In this document: positions 1,286 to 56,945 of the stretch, one piece after another | Numbering within the stretch: position 1 is the first letter of the stretch | Layout of the letters: each line of letters starts with the position of its first letter | NCBI GenBank assembly: GCA_041690135.1 | Contig: JAWLHY010000002.1 | Coordinates: 64,001-128,000 of the forward strand | Source of the DNA: Armatimonadota bacterium | Lineage (GTDB): Bacteria; Armatimonadota; SYMT01 | Direction of reading: 5' to 3' | DNA: 64,000 bases | Program-made: the position numbers and the translations under genes | Notes under the pieces: model-generated | Database searches by the model: none | What the model was told of the DNA's origin: nothing | What the model saw: only the letters and a program-made list of their open reading frames with translations

Positions 1286-1358
1286 GGGTGTTAGGGTGTT
1301 CGGTGGTCAGGCCCCCCTGTGGGGGGTAAATGTTCGGGTGTTCGAGTGTTCAGGTGGT
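1286..1358 (+). repeat. Degenerate GGTGTTCR/GGTGGTCA octamer array interrupted by a C-run/G-run (CCCCCC-TGT-GGGGGG) hairpin
   Basis: gggtgttagggtgttcggtggtcag ... tgttcgggtgttcgagtgttcaggtggt. Confidence 0.8.
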
Positions 1359-1385
1359 GAACATACGGGACTTAGGAAGGCCCAC

Positions 1386-1547
1386 GATCGTCATTGCGAG
1401 GAGCGGTGAATCCGCAGCAACTTCACAGACCAGATGAGCCTCCCGTCGAAGCACATAGGTCCTGCCATAATCCCTTAAGCGACGTGGCAAGCCCCCTGGC
1501 GAGGGCACTCGTCCTTACACGGACTGGCAACCCCCTGGTCAGGGAAG
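1386..1547 (+). repeat. Dispersed ~120-bp element, copy A (plus a second CCCCCTGGTCAGGG motif)
   Basis: GATCGTCATTGCGAGG...TAAGCGACGTGGCAAGCCCCCTGGCGAGGG; aligns by eye with copies at 11.3, 25.4 and 55.0 kb. Confidence 0.85.
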
Positions 1548-1591
1548 TGGTCTTAAACCAGTCAGCCTGTGGGTGCTCCACATCCTCAGGA

Positions 1592-2056
1592 TCAGTGTTT
1601 GCGATCCAGCGTTTCGAGGAGGCGAACTACCTCTAGGTGCTTTGCCCGCCGTGCCAGAGTGGCGGGAGTATCGCCATCGGAAGTTTGCAGAGCAGGATCA
1701 GCGCCAGCCGCTAATAGGCGCTTTACCACTTTAATCCTTCCACGGTTGGCGGCAACGTGGAGCGCAGTCCAACCCCCTCGCCCCGGTGCATTAACCGACG
1801 CTCCCCGTGCCAGGAGCAATTCGACCGTGGAGCGATGACCCTTGCCCGCGGCAATTTCGAGGTAAGCCGGATCATCTACAGGCACGTCCTGATCCAGCAT
1901 GAACGCAATTGTGGCGTTGTCGCCGCGTCCCACTGCGTCCGCAAGCTCGAGGGAGGCAAGCGGGTGGCTGATCCGATAAAGAATCCGCGAAACCGGCTTC
2001 ACGGCGAACAGGCTGCCTGCCAGCAGAATACCCAGAACGAGAAAACGAGGATGCAT
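1592..2056 (-). CDS. Ankyrin repeat protein with N-terminal hydrophobic segment
   Basis: GWTALHVAA, LLAAGADP, GDTPATLA ankyrin motifs. Confidence 0.85.
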   Translation of the reverse strand: MHPRFLVLGILLAGSLFAVKPVSRILYRISHPLASLELADAVGRGDNATIAFMLDQDVPVDDPAYLEIAAGKGHRSTVELLLARGASVNAPGRGGWTALHVAANRGRIKVVKRLLAAGADPALQTSDGDTPATLARRAKHLEVVRLLETLDRKH

Positions 2057-3111: not shown

Positions 3112-6100
3112 TCAGTTCTGCGAGGGGATCGTCACCACCAGGGCGTAGTTGCCCAGCACCTGCCTGGCCGCCGCCTGGATCTGCTCCCGGGTGACGGCGT
3201 TCACGAGGGTGGGAAACGCCAGGTCGAAGTCCCGTCCCAGTCCCATCGCCTCGTTCCAGGCGAGCCATTTGGCCTGGTCGCGGGTCCGTTCCTGGCGGAG
3301 GGCGTAGCGGCCGATGACGTAGTTCCGCGCCCGTACCAACTCGGCATCGGTGGGAGGCGTGGCGAGGAGCTGCCGGTACTGATCCAGCAGCAGGTTCCGG
3401 ACGGGCTCAAAGGTTCCCATCGGAAGCTCCGTTTTCGGGTCCAGCCGGAAGGCCGGCGTCACCACGTAACCGACGAGATGGCTCTGGTAGAGGAGCGGCT
3501 GGTAGAAAGAACCCAGCTCGTAGCCGAGATCGGCCTTCTCCCGGATGTTCCGGAAGAGCCGCGCCCGCTTGCCTCCGCCCACAATGGCGTCGAGCACCGC
3601 GTAGAGAGCGTAGTTGTCGCGGGTGGCGCCCGGCGTGAGGAAGCCGATCATCACCTGTGCCGCGGGACCTACCCGCTGGAGCGCCTCCACCCGTGGCCGC
3701 TGCAGCGCATCGCGGACCGGAACCGTACCGCTCGCCCCGACCCGGTAGGGGACATCCCGGAATGCCTTCTGCGCCAGGCTGATCGTGCGGTTCGGGTCCA
3801 CGTCGCCAACAATCCCCACCACCATCCGGTTCTGTACGTAGTTCGCCTGCCAGAACTTGCGGACATCCTCGGCGGTAATGCGGTCGAGGGTCTGGGCATA
3901 GCCGGTCATCGGCCGCCCGTAGGGGCTGCGCGGGTAAAGCTGCCCGACCAATCCCTGGTAGGAAGCGCCGGTGAAGTCATCCTGAAGCGTGGCGGCGCGG
4001 CGTTTGAGGATCTCCTTTGCTGCGTTCACCTCTTCTTCGCCGAACCGCGGGTGTGCGAGCACGTCCGCGATCAGCTTCAGGGCGTACTCGTACTGGTCCT
4101 TGCTGGTGACGATGGAGATCTCGGAGAAGTCGAAGCCGGGCAGCGAGCGGAGCGCCCCACCGGCTTTGAGGACTGCCCGCAGGAAACTGTCACCCGGATA
4201 GGTGGTGGAGCCGCGCACCAGCGCCTCCGCCGTCAGCGCGGCGATACCGGCCTGGTCTTCCCGTTCGTCCATCAGCCCGGCGCGCACCAGGCAGACGATA
4301 GAGACCATTTCGGTCGAGTTGTTAGGCCGGCAAAGGAGACGGAGCCCGTTCGAAAGCGTGCTGACCGAAGTGGGCGGCCGTTTCCGCGCCGGAGCCGCGG
4401 GCTTCGCAGCCGGGCGAGCCGGTACAGCCGGTTTAGCTGCCGGGGAGACCGGCCGGGCGGGAGCCGCCGCTGCCGAATCCGGAGTCGCCTCGACCGCCGC
4501 CCCACTCGCAGCCGCATCCGTGAACCCAGCCAGCCGGACCACCGGCACCCCCGCCGCAGCCACCTGCACCCCAAAAGGCTTCCCAACCTTCAACCCCTGG
4601 CCCCCGCGGGGGGCTTCTAACTTTCCAACCCCTACGGGCACGGCCTTCAACCCCGAGCCCCACTCCTGGCTCACGGTAGTCGCTGGGAAGGACAGGGGTT
4701 CCCCAACCTTCCAACCTTCTAACTTTCCAACCTGCAACCCAGCACCAGGCTCTTGGTAAAAGGTAGAAGCTCCCGGCCTCTGCGGGCTAGCTATCCGCGG
4801 TCGGAAGAGCACGGCCGCGGACCGGTTGTTGTCCAGGTACTTCTTCGCCACCGCCTGCACCTGTTCAGCGGTCACCGCCTCGATCTTGCGCAGGTACTCG
4901 GAGGCAAACTGCCAGCGGTTGATTGCGGCATAGTAGCCAAGCGTGCTGGCCTGCCCGGAGTAGGCCTCGTTGTCGAGAGCATAGGCGCCGCGAAGCTCCC
5001 GCTTGGCCAGCGATAGTTCCGCCTCGGGCACCAGGTTGTTGCTAAGGAAATCGATCTCTTTGCGGAGGAGCGCCTCCACCTGCTCCACCCCCGGCCCGGT
5101 CATGGCGGTGAGGAGCAGCAGGCCCTTCTGGCGGCGCGTCTCGAACACGGCCTGGACGGCGCCCGCCCCCTGGAGCAGCCGGGGCAGACGACCGGAACCG
5201 GCGTGTTCCAGAACGGTAAGGAGCACGTCCATTGCGTGGACATCCGGCTCGTCTTTCACGCTGGGCGCGGGATACGCCAGGGCCACGTAGCCGTTCGCGA
5301 AGGGCGCGTTCAACACGCGCCGCTGCGGCTCGGCGCAGGCCATCTCCTCTTCCGGCAGCGGCGCCTCGGTGCTGCCAGGGGTCGGCTCATCCGCCTTGAA
5401 GGCGGCCTTCACGGCCCGCTCCACTCCCGCGGTATCCACATCTCCCACCACGACCACCGTCATATTCGCGGGAACGTAATACTTTCGGTAGAACGCCTTT
5501 ACCGCAGCCAGATCCACCTGGTTGATGAAGCGTGGGGTCCCCCGCACGTCGTGCTTGTACGGGTGCTTTCGATACGCCATTTCGTACAACAGCGTGGAAA
5601 GCGAACGCTCCGGGTTGATACGGATCTGGTTGATCTCCTCCAGGATGATCGACTTTTCGCTCTCGAAGTCCTGGGGCCGGAACTCGGCGTTCCGCAGCGC
5701 ATCGGCTACCACGGAGATCACCTTGCCGACGTAGCGTCCGGCGACCGTGCAGCCGAAGCGGGTGTAATCCTTCTCGGTGGAAGCCTCCAACAACCCGCCC
5801 AGGTTCTCGATCTCACCGTCGATCGAGCCGGGCCCGCCGGTCTCGGTCCCCTTGAAGACCATGTGCTCGATTACGTGGGCCGTGCCCGCGTTCTGCTCAT
5901 CCTCCAGGAACCCCCCGGCGCGGATCCAGACCTGCACCGCCGCCAGGTCGGTGGCGTGGGACTCCTTGACGATGAGGCGGAGGCCGTTCTTGAAGGTGAA
6001 CTCCTTGACCTGGGCCGGATCGAGCGTTCCCGTCCGTCCCGGCAGCGCTACCGCCAGGAGAGCGAGTGCCGCGAGGCACCCGCCCAGCAGACCACGGCGC

Positions 6101-6192
6101 AGCCGGGAGAAGTACCCGGCGGCCTGGGCACGGGTTGAGGTAGGATTACTGGAAAGCGGACCGGTGTGGCGGGGCTGGTGGTGAAAATACAT
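3112..6192 (-). CDS. M16 (pitrilysin/insulinase) zinc peptidase: catalytic and non-catalytic modules in one ORF
   Basis: HVIEH (HxxEH) in the first module; second module (TLSNGL..., GIAALTAEAL) lacks the motif; start uncertain. Confidence 0.9.
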   Translation of the reverse strand: MYFHHQPRHTGPLSSNPTSTRAQAAGYFSRLRRGLLGGCLAALALLAVALPGRTGTLDPAQVKEFTFKNGLRLIVKESHATDLAAVQVWIRAGGFLEDEQNAGTAHVIEHMVFKGTETGGPGSIDGEIENLGGLLEASTEKDYTRFGCTVAGRYVGKVISVVADALRNAEFRPQDFESEKSIILEEINQIRINPERSLSTLLYEMAYRKHPYKHDVRGTPRFINQVDLAAVKAFYRKYYVPANMTVVVVGDVDTAGVERAVKAAFKADEPTPGSTEAPLPEEEMACAEPQRRVLNAPFANGYVALAYPAPSVKDEPDVHAMDVLLTVLEHAGSGRLPRLLQGAGAVQAVFETRRQKGLLLLTAMTGPGVEQVEALLRKEIDFLSNNLVPEAELSLAKRELRGAYALDNEAYSGQASTLGYYAAINRWQFASEYLRKIEAVTAEQVQAVAKKYLDNNRSAAVLFRPRIASPQRPGASTFYQEPGAGLQVGKLEGWKVGEPLSFPATTVSQEWGSGLKAVPVGVGKLEAPRGGQGLKVGKPFGVQVAAAGVPVVRLAGFTDAAASGAAVEATPDSAAAAPARPVSPAAKPAVPARPAAKPAAPARKRPPTSVSTLSNGLRLLCRPNNSTEMVSIVCLVRAGLMDEREDQAGIAALTAEALVRGSTTYPGDSFLRAVLKAGGALRSLPGFDFSEISIVTSKDQYEYALKLIADVLAHPRFGEEEVNAAKEILKRRAATLQDDFTGASYQGLVGQLYPRSPYGRPMTGYAQTLDRITAEDVRKFWQANYVQNRMVVGIVGDVDPNRTISLAQKAFRDVPYRVGASGTVPVRDALQRPRVEALQRVGPAAQVMIGFLTPGATRDNYALYAVLDAIVGGGKRARLFRNIREKADLGYELGSFYQPLLYQSHLVGYVVTPAFRLDPKTELPMGTFEPVRNLLLDQYRQLLATPPTDAELVRARNYVIGRYALRQERTRDQAKWLAWNEAMGLGRDFDLAFPTLVNAVTREQIQAAARQVLGNYALVVTIPSQN
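4579..4740 (-). repeat. AAGGTTGG-type 7/8-mer repeat array inside the M16 linker
   Basis: Exact 17-mer cttctaactttccaacc at 4614-4630 and 4716-4732, plus further ccaacctt units; encodes GLQVGKLEGWKVG / VGKLEA / GLKVGK. Confidence 0.75.
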
Positions 6193-6253
6193 CGACTGCT
6201 CTGGCTCCTGACGTTGCCCGATTCTTCCCCGGTCCCCGGAGTAAATCCTTCCA

Positions 6254-6451
6254 ATGCCCATTGATGCCGAGTTCCTCGAAATGGTCGCCTGCCCGGCCTG
6301 CAAGAGCCAGTTGATCCTCAAGGAGGATAACCGCCTGCTTTGCGTGGCCTGCCGGCGCAGCTATCCCATCCGCGACGAGATCCCCGTGCTGCTGATCGAC
6401 GAGGCCACCATCGAAGAAGATGAAGCGCGGGACGTAAGACCCGACGCCTGA
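6254..6451 (+). CDS. Trm112/YcaR family protein
   Basis: LEMVACPACK...C..C.R.YPIRDEIPVLLIDEA pattern. Confidence 0.9.
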   Translation: MPIDAEFLEMVACPACKSQLILKEDNRLLCVACRRSYPIRDEIPVLLIDEATIEEDEARDVRPDA

Positions 6452-10863: not shown

Positions 10864-11003
10864 GACAGGAACATCTTAACGAGTCGAAGTCCGGTCGGCA
10901 CTATCCGTTCACCGGACGAGACCGCTATCATGCGGGAGTAGGACCGGCGGACGGTTTTCGAACCACGCAACCTACCTGCGCAACTGAACGTTGGATGGAC
11001 GTG

Positions 11004-11053
11004 ATGCGTAATGCGTAAGAACCGGAGAGTAATGCGTATTGCGTAATGCGTAA
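11004..11053 (+). repeat. ATGCGTA heptamer array (related GCGTGAG units near 11175-11192)
   Basis: atgcgtaatgcgtaa ... aatgcgtattgcgtaatgcgtaa. Confidence 0.8.
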
Positions 11054-11283
11054 GGTCCGTAAATAGGTCTACATGGGAGGCAAGCTGGCTACCTCGAGCT
11101 GCGGTGAGGCGTGTTGCGTAAGGTTACGTGCGAGGCGGCTGCGAGGGCAGGGGGCGTACCTCGGGCAGGTGGGTGATGCGTGAGGCGTGAGGTGGCCGGG
11201 CTAGATGGTTGCGAGGGCCTGGGCCGTGCCTCGCATGATGGCCGTGCTTCGGCGGTGGGACGGTGGGGAGCGGTTTGGAACGA

Positions 11284-11436
11284 GGTTGCCACGCCCGCAT
11301 AAAGACAACTTCCCTGACCAGGGGGCCTGCCACGTCGGGTAACGGGGTGCAGTTACCCGTCGGCTGTGCTCCGGCGTTGGGGCGGCGGAGGTCTTTGAAG
11401 ACGGATTTGGTCTTACCCCTCCTCGCAGTGACGATC
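11284..11436 (-). repeat. Dispersed ~120-bp element, copy B (most diverged)
   Basis: Reverse complement GATCGTCACTGCGAGGAGG...CGACGTGGCAGGCCCCCTGGTCAGGGAAGTTGTCTT; matches copy A ends including the tail. Confidence 0.8.
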
Positions 11437-11476
11437 ATATTTTTCATGTTGGATTACAGGTAGAGTTCCACTATTT

Positions 11477-14400
11477 ATGGCGGTAGCAATTAGAACCACT
11501 TCCAAACCCCGGACCGTTGCGGCGGCCACCGGTTTCCGTGGCCGGGCGTTGGAGCGAACGCTGCTGCTGTGGAATGCGCCGCTGGTCGCGCTGGCGGCGT
11601 GGGGAGTCGCCCTGACGCAGCGGCATCCGACGGAGGCGTGGGTTCCCGCGCTGCTGGCGCTGGGCTCGATCTGGCTCGCCTGCGTGGCGCTGCACCTGCT
11701 GCTCTGTGCTACCCGGTTCGATGGCGACCTGGTGATCCTGCCGCTCTTTTCGCTGCTGCTGCTGGTCGGGGCTACCTACCAGGTGGGGGTCAAGGGGCTG
11801 GCGGGCGGCCTTACGCCCGTTCCCTATACCAAGGCCGCCCTGCTTGCACTGGCGGTCCTGGCCTTGCTCACCACCGCCGGGCCCTGGTTCAAACGGGTCA
11901 GCATCCTGCTGGAAGAGAAAGTCTGGTGGCGGGTCGCCCGCGATCGGCCCTACTACGAATCGGCGCCGTTCCACGTACTGCTGTTCGGGCTGATGGTGCT
12001 GATGGCGCTGCTCCTGTTGTTCCGGGGCCTGCGGGCGGAGAACGGGGCGGTGATCCAGGTCCAGCTTCCGGGCGGGCTGCAGTTCACCCCCAGCGAAGTC
12101 ATTCGCCTGGCGGTGGCGTTCTTCCTGGCGGATTACCTGGGACGGAACAGCCGGATCCTGCGCAACCTGCGGGAGCCCGTGGGGCGCGTCTGGCCCTTCA
12201 ACCGCATCTATATGGAGAAGCGGACGGAACTGATCGTCCTGCTTACCACCGTTCTGCTCTACTGCCTCTTCTTCTATGCGTTCCGCGACTTCGGTCCGGC
12301 CGCCGTCATCATCGCCCTCACGTTGGCGACCCTATACGCTTCTACGGGGAGACTCCTCACGCCGCTCCTGATCGGCCTGGGGCTCACGCTGCTCATCGCG
12401 ATACCCACCTATCAGGACCTGGCGTTCCACACGTTCCGGAACCGGGCGGAGATGTGGCTGAACCCGTGGGATACGGACTTCATCAACGGCGACCACCAGG
12501 CGCGGATCCTGTGGTCCATCGCCGCGGGCGGCTGGTACGGGATGGGCGTGGGCAACTTCAACCTCTCGCAGACGCTGCCGCTGGCGCGGAACGACGCCGC
12601 CTTCGCCGGGGTAGCTGCCGCGATGGGGATGTGGGTGGCCCTCGCCCTGCTGGGGCTGTTCGCGGCCCTCACCTGGCGCGGGATGCTGGCGGCTCGCCAA
12701 GCGCCCACGGACCGGATGCGCCTCCTGGCCTTCTGCCTCACCTCCCTGCTGGCGTTCCAGGCGATCTGGATCTGCGGGGCGATGGTCCGGGTCTTCCCGT
12801 TCACCGGGATCAACGTGCCGTTCATCAGCACGGGCCTCACCAGCATGCTCTGCTCGGCGGTGGCGCTGGGGACGGTCTGGAACATCTCGCGATTGGGCGC
12901 CGGACGTGTGGGCGGGACCGACGCCACGGAAGCCAGCCCGGAGGTTCTGCGCGGCGTCACGCGGATGGCTCGGCCGGTCACCTGGGCGTTCGCGCTGCCC
13001 GCGGTGGGGCTGGTCCTGTACGGCTGCCCCTGGCTACTGGGCGACCGGACACTGGTCCGCAGCGCCCGCGGCATGGACCGCTCCCGGAACAAGACCCTCT
13101 TCCCGAACCCTTACCTGGAGCGGTTCAAGCAGCGGTTCGACCGGGGCCGGGTGTTCAGCGCGGACGGCCGCCTGCTCGCCGTTTCGAAGCCAACGGCGGA
13201 AGAGGTCGCGGCTATCCGTGAGACTTCCCCCCGGTTTGCCGACAAGATCACGCCGGAGAAGATCGAGAACGGGCAGCGGTTCTACCCCCTCGGTGAGGAT
13301 GCCGCCCAACTCGTGGGATGGACGCCGCAGGGACGGTTCATGGCGCTCCAGGGGAGTGTCGAGACGGTCTGGGACCCCCTTCTCCGGGGCTACAAGCCGG
13401 AGCAGTTGCCGTTCTACTTCCGCACCCGGCACAACCCGGTGATCCGGCCGCCCCAGCCGCAAGACCTGCAGCTCACCATCCAGGCGGATCTCCAGCAGTA
13501 CGCGGTCGAGCGCCTCTCCAAGGCGGTGAAGGACTGGGACGGCAGCGGGGGCGCGGCGGTGGTCTACGACGCCACAACCGGCGAGGTGCTGGCCGCGGCT
13601 ACCGCGCCGACCTTCGACCCGAACGGCCTGACCCTGGAGCGGATGCAGCGGTACACGAAGGAGAACGGGAAGACCCAGGTGCTCTTGAACAAGGCCCTAT
13701 CACGGGAGGCGCTCTACTTCCCCGGCTCCACCTTCAAGCTCCTCACGGCCGGCGCCGCCCTGGAGGAGGGGATCGACGGCAGCGTCACCTGCCGGAACGG
13801 GCACAACGCGGAGGCGATCCGGTGGGAGTACGCCGGCACCCGCTGGCGCCGCGATCCGGGCAAGATCTCCGATTACTCGCGCGGCAGCCACGGCGCGATG
13901 GACCTGGCCGGCAGCCTCGACCGGGCCCTGACCGTCTCCTGCAACGTGTTCTTCGCGAAGCTGGCGGCGGAGGTGGGACCGGAGGCATTTCACGACGCAA
14001 TGGAGCGGGCGGAGCTGACCCGGGTTCCCGACACCCGCCAACTGGCCGAGCACCTGCCGTATAACGGGTTTGGGCAGATCGACGTGAAGGCGAGCCCCCT
14101 GGAGATGGCCATGCTGGCCGGGGCTGCGGGAACGGCGCTGGAAGGGCTGCCGGACGCCTCCGCCGCGCGTCCGCACTGGGTGAAAGCGGTGGTGACCCGC
14201 AGGGGCCCGCGCGAGCCGGACGGTCTGCCCGGTGCGCCGAATCGGAAGCCTTATCGCCCCTTCAAGCCGGAAGTGGCGCAGCGCCTGCGTGAGATGATGG
14301 TTCGCGTGGTCGAAGATCCCAACGGCACTGCTCACTCCGCCTTCTTCTTCCGGAACGGGGAGCGGCGGCTGGACGGCATCACCGTCGGTGGCAAGACCGG

Positions 14401-14737
14401 CACCGCGGAGTTCGAGAAGCCTGTCTCCGGAAAGCGGCGGCCCACCATTGGCCGCCACGCCTGGTTCGTCGGCTTCGCCCGCAGCGACCACGAACTCCAG
14501 CCGCGGACGCTGGCCTTTGCCGTGCTGGTGGAGGACGTCCGGCGCGGCGGTACCGGCGGTCAGGTCTGCGCCCCGGTGGCGCGCGATCTCGTGGCGAAGA
14601 TCCTGCCCCCGCCCGGCGAACCCGCCCCCGGTATCTTCCGCGGCCTGGAGCGCTTCTACCCGGACGTCCTCCGCCCCCGCCTCGGCCCCCTCCAACCCCT
14701 CGGCGACTGGCTCAACCGCACCTTCCAGCGCCGGTAA
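11477..14737 (+). CDS. Fused FtsW/RodA (SEDS) glycosyltransferase - class B penicillin-binding transpeptidase
   Basis: SEDS motifs (FTPSE, RDFGPA, WLNPW, GGWYGMG, FPFTGINVPFIS) followed by PBP motifs STFK, SCN, KTGT. Confidence 0.93.
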   Translation: MAVAIRTTSKPRTVAAATGFRGRALERTLLLWNAPLVALAAWGVALTQRHPTEAWVPALLALGSIWLACVALHLLLCATRFDGDLVILPLFSLLLLVGATYQVGVKGLAGGLTPVPYTKAALLALAVLALLTTAGPWFKRVSILLEEKVWWRVARDRPYYESAPFHVLLFGLMVLMALLLLFRGLRAENGAVIQVQLPGGLQFTPSEVIRLAVAFFLADYLGRNSRILRNLREPVGRVWPFNRIYMEKRTELIVLLTTVLLYCLFFYAFRDFGPAAVIIALTLATLYASTGRLLTPLLIGLGLTLLIAIPTYQDLAFHTFRNRAEMWLNPWDTDFINGDHQARILWSIAAGGWYGMGVGNFNLSQTLPLARNDAAFAGVAAAMGMWVALALLGLFAALTWRGMLAARQAPTDRMRLLAFCLTSLLAFQAIWICGAMVRVFPFTGINVPFISTGLTSMLCSAVALGTVWNISRLGAGRVGGTDATEASPEVLRGVTRMARPVTWAFALPAVGLVLYGCPWLLGDRTLVRSARGMDRSRNKTLFPNPYLERFKQRFDRGRVFSADGRLLAVSKPTAEEVAAIRETSPRFADKITPEKIENGQRFYPLGEDAAQLVGWTPQGRFMALQGSVETVWDPLLRGYKPEQLPFYFRTRHNPVIRPPQPQDLQLTIQADLQQYAVERLSKAVKDWDGSGGAAVVYDATTGEVLAAATAPTFDPNGLTLERMQRYTKENGKTQVLLNKALSREALYFPGSTFKLLTAGAALEEGIDGSVTCRNGHNAEAIRWEYAGTRWRRDPGKISDYSRGSHGAMDLAGSLDRALTVSCNVFFAKLAAEVGPEAFHDAMERAELTRVPDTRQLAEHLPYNGFGQIDVKASPLEMAMLAGAAGTALEGLPDASAARPHWVKAVVTRRGPREPDGLPGAPNRKPYRPFKPEVAQRLREMMVRVVEDPNGTAHSAFFFRNGERRLDGITVGGKTGTAEFEKPVSGKRRPTIGRHAWFVGFARSDHELQPRTLAFAVLVEDVRRGGTGGQVCAPVARDLVAKILPPPGEPAPGIFRGLERFYPDVLRPRLGPLQPLGDWLNRTFQRR

Positions 14738-14769
14738 TCACGGGCGCGGAAAAACCGCGGAGAGAGAAA

Positions 14770-14803
14770 GAACACGAAAACACGAAAGAACGAAGGCACG
14801 AAA
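14770..14803 (+). repeat. Left NNNCACGA octamer array flanking the GxxExxY gene
   Basis: gaacacga aaacacga aagaacga aggcacga. Confidence 0.85.
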
Positions 14804-14836
14804 GCTGGATAACCCGGAAGAGGGAGAGTGCATGTC

Positions 14837-15289
14837 ATGAGCGAGGATGAAGTCGATTATCTGGAGACGCTGGTTATCGGCGGAGAGGGCCTCCGAGTTG
14901 CAGAGCCGGAGCAAACCAGTTATCGATTCGAACCGGTCTCCGGAAGGATCATCCGTGCGGCAGTTCGCGTTCACAAGGCGCTGGGGCCTGGTTTTCGGGA
15001 GGAACTCTACCTCAATGCGATGTGCATCGAGCTGGAGAAGAGCGGCTTACGGTATGGCCGACGTGTTGACTACCCAGTGTACTATGAGGGACAGAAGGTG
15101 GGGACGCACGAACTCGATCTCCTCATTGAGGATTCGATAATCGTCGAACTCAAAGCGGTCTCCGCCATCCTGGAGGTCCACAAGGCACAATTGTTGGCGT
15201 ATCTTCGCGCAGCAAACAAACGCGTGGGTCTGGTGATCAACTTTGGCGAGATGCCTCTCGGCATCAAGCGTCTTCTGAATGGCTACTAA
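14837..15289 (+). CDS. GxxExxY protein (PD-(D/E)XK nuclease superfamily)
   Basis: LGPGFREELY, ELDLLIED..IVELKAV, AQLLAYL, GLVINF. Confidence 0.93.
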   Translation: MSEDEVDYLETLVIGGEGLRVAEPEQTSYRFEPVSGRIIRAAVRVHKALGPGFREELYLNAMCIELEKSGLRYGRRVDYPVYYEGQKVGTHELDLLIEDSIIVELKAVSAILEVHKAQLLAYLRAANKRVGLVINFGEMPLGIKRLLNGY

Positions 15290-15325: not shown

Positions 15326-15358
15326 TCGTGTTTTCGTCTCTTCGTGCTCTCGTGTTCT
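15326..15358 (-). repeat. Right (inverted) NNNCACGA octamer array flanking the GxxExxY gene
   Basis: tcgtgttttcgtctcttcgtgctctcgtgttc, an imperfect reverse complement of the left array. Confidence 0.85.
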
Positions 15359-15390
15359 CCTTCGGAGAACTGCGGGTTTGAGGTAGTGGC

Positions 15391-16872
15391 TTGATGCTGG
15401 ACCCGAAGAAGCTGTTGGATAGGTTGCCCCGGATCGAGGTGAAGGACCGGCCGTTCCGGTACCTGGGGCGGCGCGTGGTGCAGGCGATGGCGGAGGCGGC
15501 GACCACGAACCTGATCGTGGGCAAGCGTTCGGCGCCGGGGCGGTACCTGGTGGTACGGCTGGTGGAGAGTGAGGACGAGAAGGACCTGTGGGAGCAGCAG
15601 TTCACGGAGAGCCGTCCGGCGATCCTGCGGGAACTGGAGCGGGAAGCGGCCGCGCACGAGATCCAGCCCCGCACAAAGCTGGAAGTCGACCTCGTGGTGC
15701 TCACCGACCGGGAAGCCACGAAAGGCGAGGCGGAGCGTATCCTGTCCACCGTGCTCGACGAGGACGACATCCAGGCGGCGCTCGAGCGGCTGCAAGAAGA
15801 GCGGGAATTGATCCTGCCGCTGCGCGTGCGCACCCTGATCCTGGAGAGCGAGCCCGCCGAGGCGCAGGTCTACCTGGACCACAAGCCCGCCGGGGTTACC
15901 CCCTGTCGGATCGACGACATCTCGGAGGGAGAGCACATCGTAACGCTGGTCCGGCCCGGCTATCTGCCTTACGAGGACACGCTGCGCGTGGTGCCGGGAC
16001 GGACCGGGCAGAAGCTGACCTACCGCGCCGATCTCACTCCGGAGCCGCCGATGGGCGTGGTGGAGGTACGGACCTTTCCGCCGCGCGCCCAGGTAACGAT
16101 CCACGGCGAGACCCGCGAGTCCCCCGCGGACTGGCGGCTGCCGGTGGGGACGGTCCAGGTCCGCGTCGAGCTGGAAAGCTTCGAACCCCAGGAGTTCGCG
16201 GTGGAAGTGCCGTCCACCGGGGAGGGGCGCCCGTACCGGGTGCAGACCCGGCTCCGCTACAACGGCCCCGACCAGGATGAGGTGGTCGGGCGCCTCATCA
16301 TCTACCGGACAACGGACCGTGTTTCCGAGACGCCGGAGGTCGCGCCCGTACCCCCAGCCTCGCCGCAACCGGAGCCCGTTCCGGCCGCCAATCTGATCAG
16401 CGACTTCTTCGGTGACCAGGAAGAAGGCTCCGGCGACTGGCCCGATTGGGACCTGCCCGCCGCTCCACCCATGCCCGGCGCCGCGGTGCAACCCGCTCCC
16501 GCCGCCGCCCCTCCTCCACCCGCGACCTCCGAGGTGGAGATCCTGGGCGAGCGACCGGTCCGGCGCGGTGTGCTCCTGATCGGACGCGAGGACCCGCACG
16601 GGGGACTGGTTCCCGACGTCAAGCTCTTCGACCCGGAGAACAGCGTCTCACGCGGCTGCCATGCCTGGCTTTACATCTATGCGGACCGTTCCACCGGGGC
16701 CGTGTACAACACGTTCCTGGTCGGCAACAACAGCCCCGCGGGCATCCGGGTAGACGGTGCCCTGGTGATGGAGAGCCGGCGCCTCAACGACAACTCCGAG
16801 GTGGAAATCGGCAACTTCCGGATGCGGGTCGTCAAAGAAGTCCCCCAGGCGCGGGTTGAATTCGGCTTTTAG
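15391..16872 (+). CDS. FhaA-like protein: DUF3662-like N-terminus, PEGA repeats, C-terminal FHA domain
   Basis: PEGA (LESEPAEAQVYLD...GVTP; RTFPPRAQVTIHG); FHA (LIGRE, SVSRGCHA, NSPAGIRVDG). Confidence 0.8.
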   Translation: MMLDPKKLLDRLPRIEVKDRPFRYLGRRVVQAMAEAATTNLIVGKRSAPGRYLVVRLVESEDEKDLWEQQFTESRPAILRELEREAAAHEIQPRTKLEVDLVVLTDREATKGEAERILSTVLDEDDIQAALERLQEERELILPLRVRTLILESEPAEAQVYLDHKPAGVTPCRIDDISEGEHIVTLVRPGYLPYEDTLRVVPGRTGQKLTYRADLTPEPPMGVVEVRTFPPRAQVTIHGETRESPADWRLPVGTVQVRVELESFEPQEFAVEVPSTGEGRPYRVQTRLRYNGPDQDEVVGRLIIYRTTDRVSETPEVAPVPPASPQPEPVPAANLISDFFGDQEEGSGDWPDWDLPAAPPMPGAAVQPAPAAAPPPPATSEVEILGERPVRRGVLLIGREDPHGGLVPDVKLFDPENSVSRGCHAWLYIYADRSTGAVYNTFLVGNNSPAGIRVDGALVMESRRLNDNSEVEIGNFRMRVVKEVPQARVEFGF

Positions 16873-24703: not shown

Positions 24704-24777
24704 TCGGGGTGATAGGATTTGAACCTACGACCTCAGCGTCCCGAACGCTGCGCTCTACCAAGCTGAGCCACACCCCG
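24704..24777 (-). tRNA. tRNA-Pro (CGG)
   Basis: CGGGGTG acceptor stem, D-arm AGCTTGGTAGAGC, CAGCG-TTCGGGA-CGCTG anticodon arm, GGTTCAAATCC T-arm; CCA not in register (ATCCA). Confidence 0.97.
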
Positions 24778-24974: not shown

Positions 24975-25094
24975 ATGCCCGTGCCTATTACCCTTCAATA
25001 CATCCTGGCGGCGGCGGCCCTGGCGGTCCTGGGGATCGTGGTCGCGCTGGCGTACCTGGCGCTGGCGACACGCGTGGGCGCGGATAGGGATTAG
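24975..25094 (+). CDS. 39-aa single-TM small protein
   Basis: MPVPITLQYILAAAALAVLGIVVALAYLALATRVGADRD; GC3-rich codons. Confidence 0.5.
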   Translation: MPVPITLQYILAAAALAVLGIVVALAYLALATRVGADRD

Positions 25095-25320: not shown

Positions 25321-25337
25321 TTCCGAGTAATGACGGG

Positions 25338-25458: not shown

Positions 25459-25472
25459 TACCGTTTTCGTTG

Positions 25473-36873: not shown

Positions 36874-37421
36874 ATCGGAAGAGGGAGACTCGGATCGGGT
36901 GGAGCGCCAACTCCCGAATCTGATGCTCTACTCCAGTATACTCTTCCGGACCGCGACGGTGGAAGGTGAGGAGCACCGGAGCGGACCACGGGATTTTGGT
37001 CCCTGCGTGAGCGGCGGGCAATTACAACAGGAGACCATACCCAAGGTCGCGAAGGCCCGCCTCGCAGCGGGACTCCGGGCAGGACCCTGGAGGTTCTACG
37101 GTTCATTCAAGGTCCATTCTAATCCCCGTAAGGGTCCCTGGCACCAACTGGAAACTCCGACTTCAGGTTGCGCCTTTGGACCCGATGCATGCTCGGAACT
37201 TTGGTACCCTGTCGCGGTCCCTGACGGAGTCCGGCTGTGAGGCCGGCCTTCGCGAGTCAAGACTCCCGGATCCCGAATTCGGAAGTGGTTCGCCGCCAAC
37301 GCACGCGAGTGGGGTCGCTTGCAAGCGGGATAGGAGCTGGTAATCAGGTTCTGTAGGTCCACACTCCAGAGGCACCGATAGGCGGCCTCCGGCTGTTGCC
37401 GCAACGAAACACGGCAAGCTC

Positions 37422-43215: not shown

Positions 43216-43866
43216 CTACGCTCCGCCGCGACGTAGCCGCTCCAGTTCCGCGCGCAGCGCCGCCACTTCCTGCTCGGCGGCCTCTGCCCGGCGGCGTTCC
43301 TCTTCGTGTGTCAACAGCATGGTTCCGTCGCGGGTATAGACGCGGAGCAGTTCGTCCTCATCGAACCCGAACCAGACGCCTAACTGTGCGCTCCACACCC
43401 GCCCATCCGGCTCGCGGGGGATCTGTCGGTAACGGTCGTCAACCATCCGCCAGAGACGGAGGTCGCCGGTCGGCGGGTCGGTGTAGAGGTACTCCGGAAC
43501 CTGCAGATCACGTTCGTAGCGTTCCGGCTTGGCCTCCACGTCGCGGGCGAAGGAGGAGCGAGAGCGGATCTCCGCCACGAACTGGAGCGGAGCATCCCGC
43601 CAGGCCAGGTAGACCCGCTTCGGGCTCTTCGGCACGGGCTGATCGATGACGGCGACGTCCGGCGCCAGGTACTTGGAGAAGCTTTCCGGCTCCCAGTAGA
43701 GACAGGTCTCCCCTGTCACCCATCGATCGGGAAAGTGCGCCTGGAGAGCGCCGACCAGGTATAACTGCTGCCGGAAGTGGGCAGGAGTTTCGGGCACCGT
43801 GTCCTCCTCGTGAACCGGATAGAGATCGTGCTCATCCGCAGGTGGGACTGCTACCAGCGGTTCCAT
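43216..43866 (-). CDS. Uma2 (DUF820) family endonuclease
   Basis: ETPAH, LAPDVAV, FVAEIRSRS, K...Y....VPEY..DP, C-terminal coiled coil. Confidence 0.9.
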   Translation of the reverse strand: MEPLVAVPPADEHDLYPVHEEDTVPETPAHFRQQLYLVGALQAHFPDRWVTGETCLYWEPESFSKYLAPDVAVIDQPVPKSPKRVYLAWRDAPLQFVAEIRSRSSFARDVEAKPERYERDLQVPEYLYTDPPTGDLRLWRMVDDRYRQIPREPDGRVWSAQLGVWFGFDEDELLRVYTRDGTMLLTHEEERRRAEAAEQEVAALRAELERLRRGGA

Positions 43867-50671: not shown

Positions 50672-50684
50672 AGCGGTCCTCCGC

Positions 50685-53261: not shown

Positions 53262-54872
53262 GTGAAGATGCCCGAAAAGCAAGCGGGACAGAGCAAGCAT
53301 GGTGTGATGCGGCAGCGGCGCTGGCGCGGTACGATGGTGAGTCTACTGGGTGCGCTGGTAGCGGTTCCCGCGGCCGCGCAAGCGCCGAATGCGCCTCCTC
53401 CCCCGACGGCACCCACGACTCCAGCCCGCCCGCCGGAGGGGGCTCCGCCGGCCGCGCCAGGGCTCCCGGCGCCGGCTGGAACCCCGACCGTGCTTACGTT
53501 GGATCAAGCCGTCCGCGCGGCCCTGGCGCAGAACCCGTCTCTGGATGAGGCGCAGGCGGCGGTCCGGCGGGCGGAAGGAATCGTCGCCGAAGCCCGGGCG
53601 ATTCAACGCCCCCGCCTGGATGGGAATGCCCAGTTCACGCTTCAGGGGCCTATTCCGAGTTTCGTCTTCACCCAGCCGCCGGATCAGCCGGGGGGACAGC
53701 CGCGCCGGCAGGAGATCTCCTTCGGCCGGTCCTTCACCAAGACTTTCAACCTCTCCGCGACGTACGACGTGGACCCGTTCGGCCGCAACCGCGACACGAT
53801 CCGGGCCGCCCAGCGGAACCGGGAAGCCGTGGAAGGCGGCCTGGCGACGACGCAGAATGAACTGGTCTTTGCCACCCAGAACCTGTACCTCGCCACGCTC
53901 CGGTCGCAGGAGTTGATCCGCGTCGCCCAGGAGTCGCTCGAGTCGGCCGCGGAACAGCTCCGCGTGTCCGAGGCGGGGTTCCGGGCCGGTACCGCCGCGG
54001 AGTTCGACGTGATCCGGGGACGGGTGCAGGTCGCGAACGTACGGCAGACGCTGGTGACCGCGGGGGCCAGTTACCGCCGCGCCCTGGCGGCACTGGCGGA
54101 GATCCTTAGTCTGGAGCCGAGCGAACGCCTGGAACTCGTGCCGGTGGCTCTGCCTCCGGAACCGCCGGCCGCGCCCGGGCTGGGTGCCCAACTGGCACCT
54201 CCCGCCCCGGCTCCACCCGCGGCCGAGGCGTCGGCCGTGCAGCCGGACAGCGTCCTGGCGCCGGCCCAGCCCTTGCCGGACACCCTGGCCGAGGCCCTGG
54301 CCGAAGCCCTGGAGCGCCGCCCGGAAGTCTACAGCGCCATTCAACTCCAACGCGCCGCGGAGGCCCGGTTAGCATTCCAGCGTAAGGGCAACCGGCCGAA
54401 CGTTACGCTTTCCGGCGGCGTGCTCTACGCTCCGGACCAGGCGGGCCTCGCCTTCGAGACGACCACCTGGAGCATCGTCGGCAACATCGCCGTGCCGATC
54501 TGGGACGCGGGGCTCACGCGCGCCCGCACCCGGCAGGCCCGCGCCGATGTCGCCGCCGCCGCCGCGGACGTGGAGAGCGCCCGCGACGCCGTGACGGAGG
54601 AAGTCAAGCGCGCCCTCCTCGACCTGGAGGACGCCGCCGAGCGCCGTCGCTCCGCCGCCGCGAATACTGTGCAGGCTCGCGAGGCCCTCCGCATCGCCCA
54701 GGTGCGGTACAACGCCGGCCTGGCGCCCGTGGTGGAGGTGATCGACGCGGAAGCCGCCCTCACCCAGGCCCGGACCAACGAGGTCAATGCCGCCTACGAT
54801 TACCTGGCCGCCCTGGCCTTCCTAAACCGCAGCCTGGGACGGTATACGCCGGTAGTGGAAGCGGGGCGGTAG
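53262..54872 (+). CDS. TolC-family outer membrane protein
   Basis: LTLDQAVRAALAQNP, ALERRPE, PIWDAG, RYNAGLA..EVIDAE. Confidence 0.92.
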   Translation: MKMPEKQAGQSKHGVMRQRRWRGTMVSLLGALVAVPAAAQAPNAPPPPTAPTTPARPPEGAPPAAPGLPAPAGTPTVLTLDQAVRAALAQNPSLDEAQAAVRRAEGIVAEARAIQRPRLDGNAQFTLQGPIPSFVFTQPPDQPGGQPRRQEISFGRSFTKTFNLSATYDVDPFGRNRDTIRAAQRNREAVEGGLATTQNELVFATQNLYLATLRSQELIRVAQESLESAAEQLRVSEAGFRAGTAAEFDVIRGRVQVANVRQTLVTAGASYRRALAALAEILSLEPSERLELVPVALPPEPPAAPGLGAQLAPPAPAPPAAEASAVQPDSVLAPAQPLPDTLAEALAEALERRPEVYSAIQLQRAAEARLAFQRKGNRPNVTLSGGVLYAPDQAGLAFETTTWSIVGNIAVPIWDAGLTRARTRQARADVAAAAADVESARDAVTEEVKRALLDLEDAAERRRSAAANTVQAREALRIAQVRYNAGLAPVVEVIDAEAALTQARTNEVNAAYDYLAALAFLNRSLGRYTPVVEAGR

Positions 54873-54887
54873 GCCTCTCAGGAGGGC

Positions 54888-55382
54888 AGGTTGTGGGGTG
54901 GTCAGGCGTTCGGCCTCCCGGTGGGGATAAACACCTGGGCCACCCTACGGGCAGTGAATGTCCGGGTGTTCCGGGACTGGTCCAGATCGTCATTGCGAGG
55001 CGCGATAGACCCGCACCAACTTCCCTGAATTGGATGAGTCTTGGGCCGAAGCACTCAGCTCCTTGAATCAGAACCTGTAAGCGACGTGGCAAACCCCCTG
55101 GTCAGGGCAGTCGCAATTACAGCGATGGGCAGTCCTCTGGTTAGGGCACCTGCCTTCTCGGACCTTTATCCGCACCCTGGTCCTAATTCACGCGTCCCCT
55201 GGTCTGGGAGCCTGTAAGCGACTTACACCGCCTTGGGCCTCTCCAGTGCTCAACGTTTATTCCGCTACAGAGGGACCCAGCGCCGGAAAGCCTGAACTGG
55301 GGAAAGCCCGAACACCCGACCACCCGACCACCTGACCACCCGACCACCTGACCACCTGAACGCCCGAGCACCCGAACACCCG
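54888..55382 (+). mobile_element. Composite MITE-like repeat: element copy D (54985-55110) between inverted GGTGKTCR octamer arrays
   Basis: Left ggtggtcaggcgttcgg...gggtgttccggg; core GATCGTCATTGCGAGG...GTAAGCGACGTGGCAAACCCCCTGGTCAGGG; right (CCCGACCA/CCTGACCA)x~9 at 55307-55382; mobility inferred. Confidence 0.65.
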
Positions 55383-55433
55383 CCCCACCACCAAAAGCAG
55401 GTCTCCCGATCGGCGCTCCCGAACCGTGTCGAT

Positions 55434-56945
55434 ATGGAAACGGCTTCCGACTCCCCTTTCGACCTGATCGTCCGCGGCGAGGTCCTCGATCCTTCGCAGG
55501 GCCTCCGCGGCCGGTACGACCTGGGCATCCGCGACGGGCGGGTCGCCGCGGTGGCGCCCAGCCTGGAAGGGCACCCCATGCGGGAGTGGCTGGATGCGGG
55601 CGACGCCCTCGTCGGTCCCGGCTTCATCGATATTCATGCGCACGTCTATGCCGGGGTCACCTCCTGGGGGGTGTGGCCCGACCCGCCCTGCCTGCGCTCT
55701 GGCGTAACGACCGTAGTTGACGCCGGCAGCCCCGGCTGGACCATGCTCCAGGGTTTCCGCTGGCTCATCCACGAGCGCTCCCGGGTGCGCGCCCTCTGCT
55801 TCCTCCACATCTCCGGCATCGGCCTGGTGAACGCCTGGGTGGACGAGTGCCGCGACATCAGCCATCTTGACCCCCTCACCGTCGGGGAGCATGCCGCGGA
55901 GAACGACGACCTGGTGGTCGGCATCAAGGTCCGCCAGGGCCTGGAGCAGGTCGGCGAGCACGGCGTCGAACCCCTGAAACTGGCGATCGAAGCCGCCCGC
56001 CGCGCGGACTCGCATCGGGAGTGTCTCGCGCCAAGCCGGTGCGAAGGGGGAACGAAGCTCTCGCAAAGCCGCAAAGGCGCAAAGGGAAACGGTGTTCAGG
56101 TGTTCGGGTGTTCCGGTGTTCCGGCGGGAAGGCAGCCACTCGCAAACGCGGACACCTCATCCTCAAAGTTACGGCGAAACAAACAGCCAGAGACGACGCT
56201 GTTGCACACCAACCCGGCTACTGACAGCGGGGGTTTCCCTTACGCAATACGCAATACGCATTACGAAACTCCCGTAATGTGCCACATCGCCCCCGGCATT
56301 CCCCTGGCACAGGTGCTGGAACTCCTGCGGCCGGGGGATATCGTGACCCACTGCTTCCAGGGTCGAGGGGCGGAGTTGGAGAACCTGACGGACTCCCGCG
56401 GTCGCCTGCTGCCGGAGGTGCTGGACGCCCGGCAGCGCGGGGTGGTGATGGACGTGGGGCACGGCGGCGGCAGCTTCCGGTGGGAGGTGGCGGAACGGGC
56501 GCTGGAGCAGAACTTCCTGCCGGACGTGATCAGCACCGATCTCCACGCCTACAACATGCATGGGCCCCTATTTGATATGGCCGCCACCCTGACCAAGTTC
56601 CTGTACCTCGGTATGCCGCTGGAGCAGGTGGTCGCCTGCGCCACCGTGGCGCCCGCCCGAAGTATCGGCCGTCCGGACCTGGGCACTCTCGCCGTCGGCA
56701 GCCCCGCCGACCTCACCGTTTTTCGGATCGCCAACGAGCCGGTCGAGATGTGGGACGCCCACTTCCAGCGCCGCACCTGGGACCGGCGCCTGAAGGTGGA
56801 AGCCACCATTCGCGCCGGTGTGGTCTACCGTCCGGAAGAGGTGGAGCCGGAAACGGAAGAGGAGATCACCCGGCGCTGCCGCCGGCGGGGCCCCGAAGCC
56901 CTGAAGCACGCCTGGAAAGCGCAACTGGGACGGGAGGCGCGCTGA
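55434..56945 (+). CDS. Amidohydrolase (dihydroorotase-like/deacetylase family) with in-frame insert
   Basis: PGFIDIHAH, GVTTVVDAGS, GIKVR, MCH, DIVTHCF, DVGHGGGSF, ISTDLH. Confidence 0.9.
   Translation: METASDSPFDLIVRGEVLDPSQGLRGRYDLGIRDGRVAAVAPSLEGHPMREWLDAGDALVGPGFIDIHAHVYAGVTSWGVWPDPPCLRSGVTTVVDAGSPGWTMLQGFRWLIHERSRVRALCFLHISGIGLVNAWVDECRDISHLDPLTVGEHAAENDDLVVGIKVRQGLEQVGEHGVEPLKLAIEAARRADSHRECLAPSRCEGGTKLSQSRKGAKGNGVQVFGCSGVPAGRQPLANADTSSSKLRRNKQPETTLLHTNPATDSGGFPYAIRNTHYETPVMCHIAPGIPLAQVLELLRPGDIVTHCFQGRGAELENLTDSRGRLLPEVLDARQRGVVMDVGHGGGSFRWEVAERALEQNFLPDVISTDLHAYNMHGPLFDMAATLTKFLYLGMPLEQVVACATVAPARSIGRPDLGTLAVGSPADLTVFRIANEPVEMWDAHFQRRTWDRRLKVEATIRAGVVYRPEEVEPETEEEITRRCRRRGPEALKHAWKAQLGREAR
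56010..56267 (+). repeat. 258-nt in-frame insert containing three short-repeat families
   Basis: cgcaaagccgcaaaggcgcaaag; ggtgttcaggtgttcgggtgttccggtgtt; tacgcaatacgcaatacgcattacg; boundaries approximate. Confidence 0.8.

Follow-up and report, generated by a model that had tools for sequence, protein, structure and literature searches.

Tandem arrays as inverted arms of one-gene cassettes, as modules of a dispersed element and as coding inserts in an Armatimonadota genome

The 64,000-nt stretch of DNA analyzed here (G000:C2:64001-128000, hereafter the window) comes from an Armatimonadota genome of 9.1 Mb (25 contigs, 65% G+C) and carries numerous tandem arrays of short units. We found that a subset of such arrays stands as inverted arms on the two sides of single small genes belonging to two families, GxxExxY (PF13366) and 23S_rRNA_IVP (PF05635, a four-helix bundle, hereafter IVP). 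The architecture of these one-gene cassettes, their specificity for the two gene families and their breadth across phyla were directly observed. On balance, we lean slightly toward a joint reading in which the arrays play at least three roles, namely as arms of selfish cassettes of the intervening-sequence (IVS) type, as modules of a dispersed element and as coding inserts. Arrays were detected with Tandem Repeats Finder (TRF) in the window and in the whole genome, the chance level was taken from third-order Markov simulations (20 for the window and 3 for contig C2), and the own genome (G000) was compared with the relatives G001-G005.

Inverted arms around GxxExxY and IVP genes

The cassette found in the window is made of three parts:

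14769-14801, + strand: 5' arm, 33 nt, purine-rich tandem ACACGAA-type units
14828-15289, + strand: GxxExxY gene, 153 aa, PD-(D/E)XK nuclease fold (PF13366, E 2.4e-36; TIGR04256, E 2.6e-38)
15326-15358, + strand: 3' arm, 33 nt, pyrimidine-rich reverse complement of the 5' arm

The encoded protein exceeds the cut-offs of both families (125.1 bits against 22 for PF13366 and 130.9 bits against 35 for TIGR04256). Its GxxExxY and D...ExK motifs are intact, with G19, E22, Y25, D61 and K73 invariant in 13 sequences and E71 nearly so. This open reading frame (ORF), which belongs to PF13366 and not to PF05635, is the only one in the window cassette, and no transposase family was matched there. Regarding a possible defence role, PADLOC returned weak Cas4 and PDC-S05 matches and nothing more, and no solved structure matched the GxxExxY protein by sequence. 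At the RNA level, the two arms (14769-14801 and 15326-15358) are predicted to pair in both the minimum free energy and the centroid folds.

The cassette sits between an FtsW/transpeptidase (PBP) gene (11477-14737) and a PEGA gene (15391-16872), which are 653 nt apart. In G003, G001 and G002, these two genes either overlap or are separated by about 22 to about 100 nt. Because the flanking genes abut in these three relatives, comparison of gene order shows the segment 14769-15358 to be an insertion relative to them. In G004 and G005, another gene stands upstream of the PEGA orthologue within 1.5 kb. A sequence-only reading of the window had proposed that arrays, bracketed genes and coding inserts spread together and had pointed to empty sites in relatives as a check; such sites were indeed found for the window cassette and for two coding inserts described below (in an amidohydrolase and in QueA), and on these alignments all three are shown to be insertions.

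In G005 (L065:1240-1490), a small inverted TATTGCG / CGCAATA bracket, with arms about 100 nt apart, is located upstream of the PEGA orthologue, and an additional CGCAATA array lies downstream of it. This bracket shows that array brackets occur in a related genus too.

We then considered the two gene families across the own genome. Inverted arms (score of at least 34) are present at all six full-length PF13366 loci, and a truncated seventh locus has one arm. The arm units differ from one GxxExxY locus to another (CGCAGAG, CGCCAAG, CACAGATTT, CGCAAAGG, GACACAGAGG and ACACGAA). The converse search, which started from inverted array pairs, returned six brackets that contain PF05635 genes. Among the eight PF05635 loci over the cut-off, six have arms with z >8 and a seventh has GTTGAAG arms farther out. 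The IVP arm units (AGGCAGA, GAGTAA, GGTGTTCGGG, GGATAA, ATTGCAA, GACAATTG and GTTGAAG) overlap the array families of the window. As a control, 200 random small genes of the own genome were scored in the same way: z >6 was reached by five of them and a score of 40 by just one, which is itself a GxxExxY gene. No flanking inverted repeats with z >6 were detected at any of the 35 Uma2 (PF05685) loci, and the Uma2 gene of the window (43216-43866) has a z of -0.6. The proposed link between arrays and nuclease or bundle genes was thus borne out for the GxxExxY and four-helix-bundle families and failed for Uma2.

DUF559 gave two partial matches, one of them within a bracket with non-tandem arms of 49 nt. 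These DUF559 (Vsr-like endonuclease) fragments, at G000:C11:151153-151702 and G000:C24:4567-5308, lie in or beside brackets whose non-tandem inverted arms measure 40-49 nt.

The same architecture is found well outside this genome. Elsewhere in the phylum, brackets surround 24 of the 28 GxxExxY loci and 25 of the 29 IVP loci that were evaluable; 22 of these 25 IVP loci have tandem-like arms, mostly heptamers, with very different units. A scan of one genome per species, which took in Acidobacteriota, Verrucomicrobiota, Cyanobacteria, Bacteroidota, Chloroflexota, Proteobacteria, Omnitrophota, Methanosarcinales and others, gave 80 GxxExxY loci, and 59 of the 79 that could be evaluated are bracketed. 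The cassettes measure 0.45-0.75 kb and hold one ORF, and their arms are 25-60 nt of tandem 7-9-mers. The GxxExxY arms share a consensus in which two to four CRCNRAG-type units come after TTCACC or TTAACC, its form kept across phyla being TTCACC(RCAGAGR)n, and two or more CRCNRAG-type 7-mers are present in 76 of 86 GxxExxY brackets. The arms are also polar. Purines prevail in the 5' arm of 81 of the 86 GxxExxY brackets, and the 5' arm contains more G than C in 32 of 33 IVP brackets; since inverted repeats are symmetric, this polarity is valid on either strand. In the own genome, the genes on both sides lie on the same strand for 6 of 7 GxxExxY and 5 of 8 IVP genes; these small numbers fit co-transcription with host operons.

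Third-position G+C (GC3) of the cassette ORFs and bracket interiors is about 0.4-0.7, compared with about 0.8-0.9 for host genes. Due to this low value, the cassette genes were missed by the crude GC3-based heuristic that supplied our genome-wide gene calls. The low GC3 fits a foreign origin or weak codon adaptation.

Regarding the contents of the brackets, a Pfam scan of 34 ORFs from 16 brackets identified six PF05635 members and left 25 ORFs without a match. The three remaining ORFs are a CobW-domain protein, a leucine-rich repeat (LRR) protein and a weaker PF05635 match; the CobW and LRR ORFs resemble ordinary genes that lie between arrays paired by chance. The own genome also has about 15 mini-brackets (140-290 nt) with GxxExxY-type arms.

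Two loci have a more complex arrangement. At G000:C5:238228-239155, a GxxExxY gene has a complete mini-bracket of about 240 nt on each side, with CGCAGAG-type arms that are alike; given these matching arms on both sides, the cassette ends are nested or duplicated. At G000:C3:184546-185224 (L051), three nested inverted-repeat pairs with differing arms surround about 500 nt in which no ORF matches Pfam.

Dispersed element, coding inserts and the array population

The six unit families that had been named from the window sequence were all recovered by TRF at their places:

1331-1356 and 56090-56124: GGTGTTCR arrays, with the reverse complement at 55307-55382
4703-4733: GGTTGGAA array
11000-11053: ATGCGTA array, in a divergent intergenic region beside copy 2 of the element described below, with the reverse complement at 56241-56265
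14771-14803: CACGAAA array, with the complement at 15326-15359
25112-25314: GGATAA arrays
56062-56085: CGCAAAG array

Arrays of period 6-8 are above chance, since 28 were counted in the window against 1-12 across the 20 simulations, and 374 on contig C2 against 125-150 across the 3 simulations. Genome-wide, TRF returned 6,901 rows (755 of period 6, 893 of period 7 and 801 of period 8) with hundreds of distinct units, and the merged array loci number 1,777. The most recurrent units are AAGGAT (92), AACCTTC (91-92), AACACCCG (73), AATCCT (60), AATACGC (48) and AATGCGT (47). About 21% of the genome is non-coding according to the GC3-based caller. Homologous flanks are shared within the family by 37 of 75, 31 of 69 and 32 of 60 arrays in the three largest families, and among the 104 neighbouring array pairs with differing units some combinations recur. 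These shared flanks and recurrent combinations argue that many arrays are parts of larger dispersed units. One set of unit families is common to the cassette arms, the flanks of the dispersed element and the coding inserts.

The sequence-only reading had described a 120-bp element in four copies. The four window copies are real, and the element proved to be about 160 nt long, composite and widely dispersed: iterated nhmmer searches gave 123 hits in the genome, 91 of which span at least 120 model positions and were taken as full copies. The window copies and their modules are as follows:

1286-1356, + strand: upstream module of copy 1, GGTGTTCR octamer arrays with an embedded G/C hairpin
1372-1555, + strand: core of copy 1 (nhmmer C2:65372-65555, E 1.9e-49), ending in a GGCAAGCCCCCTGGTCAGGG hairpin module
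11281-11441, - strand: core of copy 2 (nhmmer C2:75441-75281)
25078-25320, - strand: downstream part of copy 3, tandem 67-90-nt modules, each with a GGATAA-type hexamer array and a CCCTGACCAGGGG hairpin (TRF period 90, 2.1 copies)
25310-25477, - strand: core of copy 3 (nhmmer C2:89477-89310)
25464-25518, - strand: upstream module of copy 3, GCCTGAC / GACCACCC arrays (complement of GGTGGTC)
54878-54913 and 55324-55359, + strand: arms of the bracket around copy 4, the right arm belonging to a 9.5-copy CCCGACCA array
54968-55156, + strand: core of copy 4 (nhmmer), inside the inverted array bracket 54878-55392

When the copies are oriented, the upstream side carries GGTGTTCG- or GGCATTCA-type octamer arrays, often together with a G/C hairpin, the core of about 110 nt has the GGCAAGCCCCCTGGTCAGGG hairpin at its end, and the downstream side holds a variable number of 65-90-nt modules, each made of a TTATCC-type hexamer array and a GGCAAGCCCCCTGGTCAGGG hairpin. 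Seen from the opposite strand, these downstream modules appear as the GGATAA arrays at 25078-25320. An array is found within 300 nt upstream in 29 of the 91 full copies and downstream in 37, and the unit types differ by side in a strand-specific manner. For the element, Rfam gave no match, neither at the gathering score in the window nor with values of E up to 1 in 54850-55420. The alifold consensus is 91.8% paired, against a mean of 89.5% and a maximum of 90.5% in 200 column shuffles, with 3 two-sided pair changes against a shuffle mean of 2.6. These values hardly rise above the shuffles and are at most compatible with a structured RNA.

Arrays were also found inside genes. In-frame inserts had been claimed for two enzymes of the window, the amidohydrolase and an M16 peptidase:

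55434-56945, + strand: amidohydrolase/deacetylase-family metallohydrolase gene (NF006689, E 5e-114; Pfam Amidohydro_1 and Amidohydro_3)
56010-56267, + strand: amidohydrolase insert, 86 codons (residues 193-278), in frame, lineage-specific
4583-4746, - strand: M16 spacer, with a 48-nt dispersed module (4583-4630) and the GGTTGGAA array (4703-4733)

The claim held for the amidohydrolase, whose orthologues do not have the insert. The NF006689 match is split in two around the insert, the best stretch aligning residues 276-474 to profile positions 183-379. In G001-G004, the orthologues (63-74% identity) align to residues 5-192 and 279-500 in two matches that are 0-27 nt apart in their DNA, and a paralogue in the own genome does not have the insert either. 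The alignment shows a gap at the insert with conserved residues on either side. The insert combines, as a mosaic, arrays of several types (CGCCAAG/CGCAAAG of the GxxExxY-arm type, GGTGTTC and TACGCAA) with about 100 nt of unique sequence, and only its array parts recur elsewhere in the genome. In a low-depth AlphaFold model (mean pLDDT 62), residues 199-275 are predicted to form a loop without secondary structure (pLDDT 23-31) between helix 179-198 and strand 281-285.

The inverted bracket noted around the GxxExxY gene (14769-14801 / 15326-15358) was confirmed. A second pair of arrays, 55347-55380 with 56099-56132, extends over the 5' half of the amidohydrolase gene. This second pair has the C-rich arm first, and because this polarity is opposite to that of true cassettes, we read it as two unrelated arms.

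The C-terminal tail of the amidohydrolase orthologue in G004 (L002, G004:C559), TTEPRRGEVHHGVHHGATEARRG, resembles a translated cassette arm of the CACGGAG type. If so, the G004 ORF runs into arm sequence.

In the M16 case, the array turned out to lie in a spacer between two genes. The ORF 3112-6321 (- strand, 1069 aa) consists of two M16 peptidase genes joined by a stop-free spacer of about 115 codons. Four of the five relatives searched (G001, G002, G003 and G005) have the halves as distinct, adjacent open frames 27-206 nt apart, which places the array in an inter-gene spacer; in G004, both halves are on one contig and are cut by the contig end. An annotation pipeline would probably call the ORF 3112-6321 a fusion.

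Predicted genes of at least 300 aa contain 138 recurrent-family arrays at a depth of 80 codons or more, and coding-like GC3 is seen on both sides of 59 of these. Six array-bearing genes were checked against Pfam, and in three of them (QueA, radical-SAM/SPASM and PSCyt2/PSD1) the array breaks up what is a single enzyme or domain protein. In QueA (G000:C13:115630-116787, L185), AGGCAGA x5 and GAACTCG x4 arrays make up an in-frame insert of about 35-43 residues. This pairing is found at 4 sites in the genome, and the QueA orthologues in G001, G002, G004 and G005 do not have the insert. From the amidohydrolase, QueA and the genome-wide screen, in-frame array inserts are recurrent in this genome. 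Neither the amidohydrolase nor the QueA insert has complementary ends, and both are a multiple of three and stop-free. The absence of complementary arms and the open frames argue for translation rather than RNA excision, and the suggestion that coding inserts are excised from RNA is not upheld. Array mosaics thus probably persist in enzymes as in-frame, translated, disordered loops.

In the radical-SAM/SPASM gene (G000:C9:44382-45665, L183), the Pfam match is interrupted at a GCCTTCT array, and in the PSCyt2/PSD1 gene (G000:C2:475024-477894, L182) at a TACGCAA array. Both are probably further in-frame inserts.

Other features of the window include sulfatase, ankyrin, PEGA, FHA and Ser/Thr kinase genes; PSCyt2/PSD1 genes occur in the genome outside the window, and together these genes seem planctomycete-like. 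At the gathering score, the sole Rfam match in the window is a tRNA (24704-24777), and no rRNA was matched there. A perfect 4.5-copy array of the 11-mer TCCTTCCCGGC, followed by TCCTTA hexamers, lies at 29885-29959, directly 3' of a DUF11-domain gene, and overlaps the 3' end of a BNR/Sortilin-like gene (29970, - strand). A further dispersed inverted-repeat element is present at 37047-37255; its 31-nt arms (TCGCGAAGGCCCGCCTCGCAGCGGGACTCCG and complement), each with a hairpin, are 147 nt apart. The TCGCGAAGGCCCGCCTCGCAGCGGGACTCCG arms are clustered elsewhere, for example at C1:242632-243768, C3:643321-643995 and C1:1171747-1173280.

Mechanism and rival explanations

In the reading that we favor, a subset of the arrays would be the terminal inverted arms of one-ORF cassettes that encode either a GxxExxY nuclease or an S23p/23S_rRNA_IVP protein. 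The arms would pair in a transcript from either strand and form a long stem around the ORF. By analogy with the rRNA intervening sequences that carry the same ORF family, RNase III may cleave this stem and so uncouple the cassette from the host operon. At the DNA level, the cassette would spread through its arms, whose repeated units may be recognized by a protein, most simply the encoded nuclease. Such recognition of repeated units is suggested by the GxxExxY arm consensus that is kept across phyla, and the GxxExxY nuclease would be the likeliest spreading agent for its own cassettes. The dispersed element of about 160 nt would be flanked by unit families that are also used as arms, and mosaics of several array types would have landed in coding regions, where they would be translated and not removed.

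Several results weigh against this reading. The processing of the stem by RNase III is pure analogy. Arm mismatches that are compatible with G:U pairing do not exceed A:C mismatches (118 against 117 in GxxExxY and 53 against 44 in IVP cassettes), so that the count does not tell RNA-level from DNA-level selection on the arms, and selection on a sense-strand RNA stem is unsupported. On the GxxExxY protein tree, the arm unit type changes 45 times, against 46-52 changes in the 10 shuffles listed out of 200 (a quick tree of 86 short proteins, on which 76 labelled rows were counted and ten labelled 'other' were left out); as the arm units barely follow the protein tree, co-evolution of nuclease and arms is unsupported. 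The IVP cassettes encode no nuclease. No target-site duplication is evident by eye in the 12-nt outer flanks of the 86 brackets, the alignment ends being inexact. The idea that mini-brackets are decayed GxxExxY or IVP genes was rejected at the sensitivity reached, since our own hidden Markov models, run in six frames over 172 bracket intervals, returned known cassettes only. Copies of the dispersed element as bracket cargo were likewise rejected, with just 3 of the 89 copies tested being bracketed. Among 940 intergenic array loci, an inverted partner within 1.5 kb (score of at least 36) was found for just 46, next to 44 with a direct partner at that distance, and more than 90% of the arrays have no inverted partner; the cassettes are therefore a small minority of the arrays and thus leave most of them unexplained. 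Finally, the crude GC3-based gene calls bound every coding and intergenic count given here.

A wider version of the cassette reading can be conceived, although we consider it rather unlikely. The GxxExxY and four-helix-bundle genes would be the cargo of a very widespread and so far undescribed kind of mobile cassette with polar inverted tandem arrays, rather than fixed sequences, as ends, the GxxExxY nuclease would act in mobilizing or homing, and solitary arrays and in-frame inserts would be footprints or half-sites, the cyanobacterial STRR-type repeats among them. The cassette ends would be recognized as repeated units or as a hairpin or cruciform, and the scope would extend to many bacterial phyla and some archaea.

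The sequence-only reading had gone further and ascribed the spread of arrays, element, bracketed genes and inserts to one transposase-free mechanism, nuclease-assisted or working by RNA stem-loop excision, with GxxExxY, Uma2, DUF559 and four-helix-bundle proteins as agents. In its favor is the sharing of unit families: GGTGTTCGGG, GGATAA and GTTGAAG units serve as IVP arms, element flanks and insert parts, and the amidohydrolase insert starts with a GxxExxY-type arm sequence. The homologous flanks shared within the three largest families also fit movement within larger units, and one of the two DUF559 matches is inside a bracket. Against it, brackets are absent from the Uma2 loci and from most copies of the dispersed element, the great majority of arrays stand without an inverted partner, complementary arms are missing from the coding inserts, and no decayed nuclease genes turned up within the brackets. 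Moreover, 1,777 array loci stand against 7 GxxExxY and 8 over-cut-off IVP loci. We consider this mechanism quite unlikely, and a single common nuclease-assisted mechanism is conjecture. According to another explanation, the arrays arise in situ by replication slippage on 6-8-nt units, so that arrays, element and inserts share no mobility mechanism and the cassettes merely carry or attract slippage-prone sequence. According to the available part of one account, no class of long simple repeats is commoner than heptanucleotides in many bacteria, and slippage of the polymerase is proposed to create them (Mrazek et al. 2007 via PMC4679880). The hundreds of distinct units agree with this, as do the differing units of the 104 adjacent pairs, the almost free shifts of arm unit type on the protein tree and the variation of IVP arm units by cassette. 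Slippage does not explain the approximately 70-100 nt of non-repetitive sequence in the inserts, the recurrence of the AGGCAGA and GAACTCG pairing at several sites or the shared flanks of about half of the top-family arrays, and a GxxExxY arm consensus kept across phyla is not predicted by independent slippage. Slippage as the general explanation is unlikely in our view.

The solitary arrays might instead be binding-site arrays for a regulator of transcription or translation, unrelated to mobility. Their strongly intergenic position (72 of 92 for AAGGAT, 72 of 92 for AACCTTC and 52 of 73 for AACACCCG) would suit such a role, and so would the strand bias of some families relative to co-directional neighbour genes (12:1 for ACACGGAG and 18:6 for AACACCCG); the TAACTGA repeats of Beggiatoaceae are a precedent, as far as the available part of the source tells (PMC4679880). 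This bias is mixed, however, as the largest family is at 21:22 and has none, and the type of intergenic region around solitary arrays is the same as background. Arrays are present in coding regions too, and dozens of unrelated units would call for dozens of regulators, which makes this explanation very unlikely. It would be more surprising still if the inserts and bracketed segments were true intervening sequences that are removed from RNA or protein and leave the host products unaltered. The arms of the cassettes are able to form a long stem, and S23p-type rRNA intervening sequences are excised from RNA, as the accessible portion of the literature describes (PMC4990558). In that same portion, excision by RNase III occurs without ligation, which would break an mRNA (PMC4990558). 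No complementary arms stand on the two sides of the amidohydrolase and QueA inserts, and their stop-free lengths in multiples of three are what is expected if they are translated. Intron and intein families were unmatched in the family scans. Removal is extremely unlikely.

Known systems and significance

Among known systems, rRNA intervening sequences that carry an S23p ORF come closest to the cassettes, but the location in rRNA that defines them is not that of the cassettes. In the part of the literature available for these sequences, the inverted repeats at their ends make up a 28-bp stem that is cut by RNase III, followed by excision without ligation (PMC4990558). On the same partial basis, the two are alike in size (about 430-760 nt in Leptospira and Coxiella against 450-750 nt here), in having one short PF05635 ORF (here in the IVP cassettes) within terminal inverted repeats with a stem of about 28 bp or more, and in their sporadic distribution (PMC4990558). 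In contrast to them, the cassettes described here lie between protein-coding genes and not in a 23S/16S rRNA helix, their arms are tandem arrays of 7-9 nt with a fixed purine-to-pyrimidine polarity, and a second, unrelated ORF family, the GxxExxY nuclease, shares the architecture. With transposons of the miniature inverted-repeat (MITE) and terminal inverted repeat (TIR) type, and with REP/BIME repeats, the common points are terminal inverted repeats, short non-coding derivatives (the approximately 15 mini-brackets) and hairpin modules (the dispersed element). Unlike MITE/TIR elements, the cassettes have no recognized transposase, their copies are not near-identical and their arms vary within a genome; a target-site duplication was not evident by eye.

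The coding inserts recall Rickettsia palindromic elements (RPE), repeats that are inserted in frame into genes. Both add a peptide segment to conserved proteins and keep the frame; however, the inserts here are differing mosaics with no single palindromic consensus and no complementary ends. Cyanobacterial STRR are intergenic heptamer repeats. For the TAACTGA heptamer repeats of Beggiatoaceae, Cyanobacteria and Bacteroidetes, regulatory roles have been proposed, and the available part of the source counts 169 direct sets and one indirect repeat (PMC4679880). As far as these sources are available, the arrays resemble the TAACTGA, STRR and Mrazek repeats in having 2 to about 20 tandem copies of recurrent 7-nt units (6-8 nt here), mostly in intergenic position, and differ from them in that those are direct repeats of one or few units, whereas inverted arms surround genes here. 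In Borg elements, tandem repeats in ORFs create disordered protein regions, according to the accessible part of that work (PMC9879509). Both kinds of repeat would add probably disordered segments to proteins through tandem repeats in ORFs, but with units of 7-8 nt, as here, whole codons need three copies or a mix of arrays, and the inserts include non-repeat sequence.

No description of inverted tandem-array arms around GxxExxY or IVP genes was found in the searchable literature, from which GxxExxY in the relevant sense and five arm 15-mers are also absent, whereas the Pfam name PDDEXK_3 is used in one survey; subscription journals and the notes of family curators were out of reach of this search, and such cassettes may therefore be known already. 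In annotation, caution is called for, since stop-free array spacers fuse neighbouring genes, as with M16, and cassette arms are read into protein ends.

As judged from sequence comparison, short tandem repeats appear to form the paired inverted arms of one-gene selfish cassettes across many phyla. GxxExxY and 23S_rRNA_IVP are large, uncharacterized families with many paralogues per genome, and they now share one cassette architecture, with a GxxExxY arm consensus conserved from Planctomycetota to Cyanobacteria and Methanosarcinales. Classical rRNA intervening sequences are thereby linked to a much larger population outside rRNA, and a partial origin is offered for the heptamer repeats of bacteria. 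In the genome studied here, array mosaics have supplied housekeeping enzymes, QueA included, with long additional loops.

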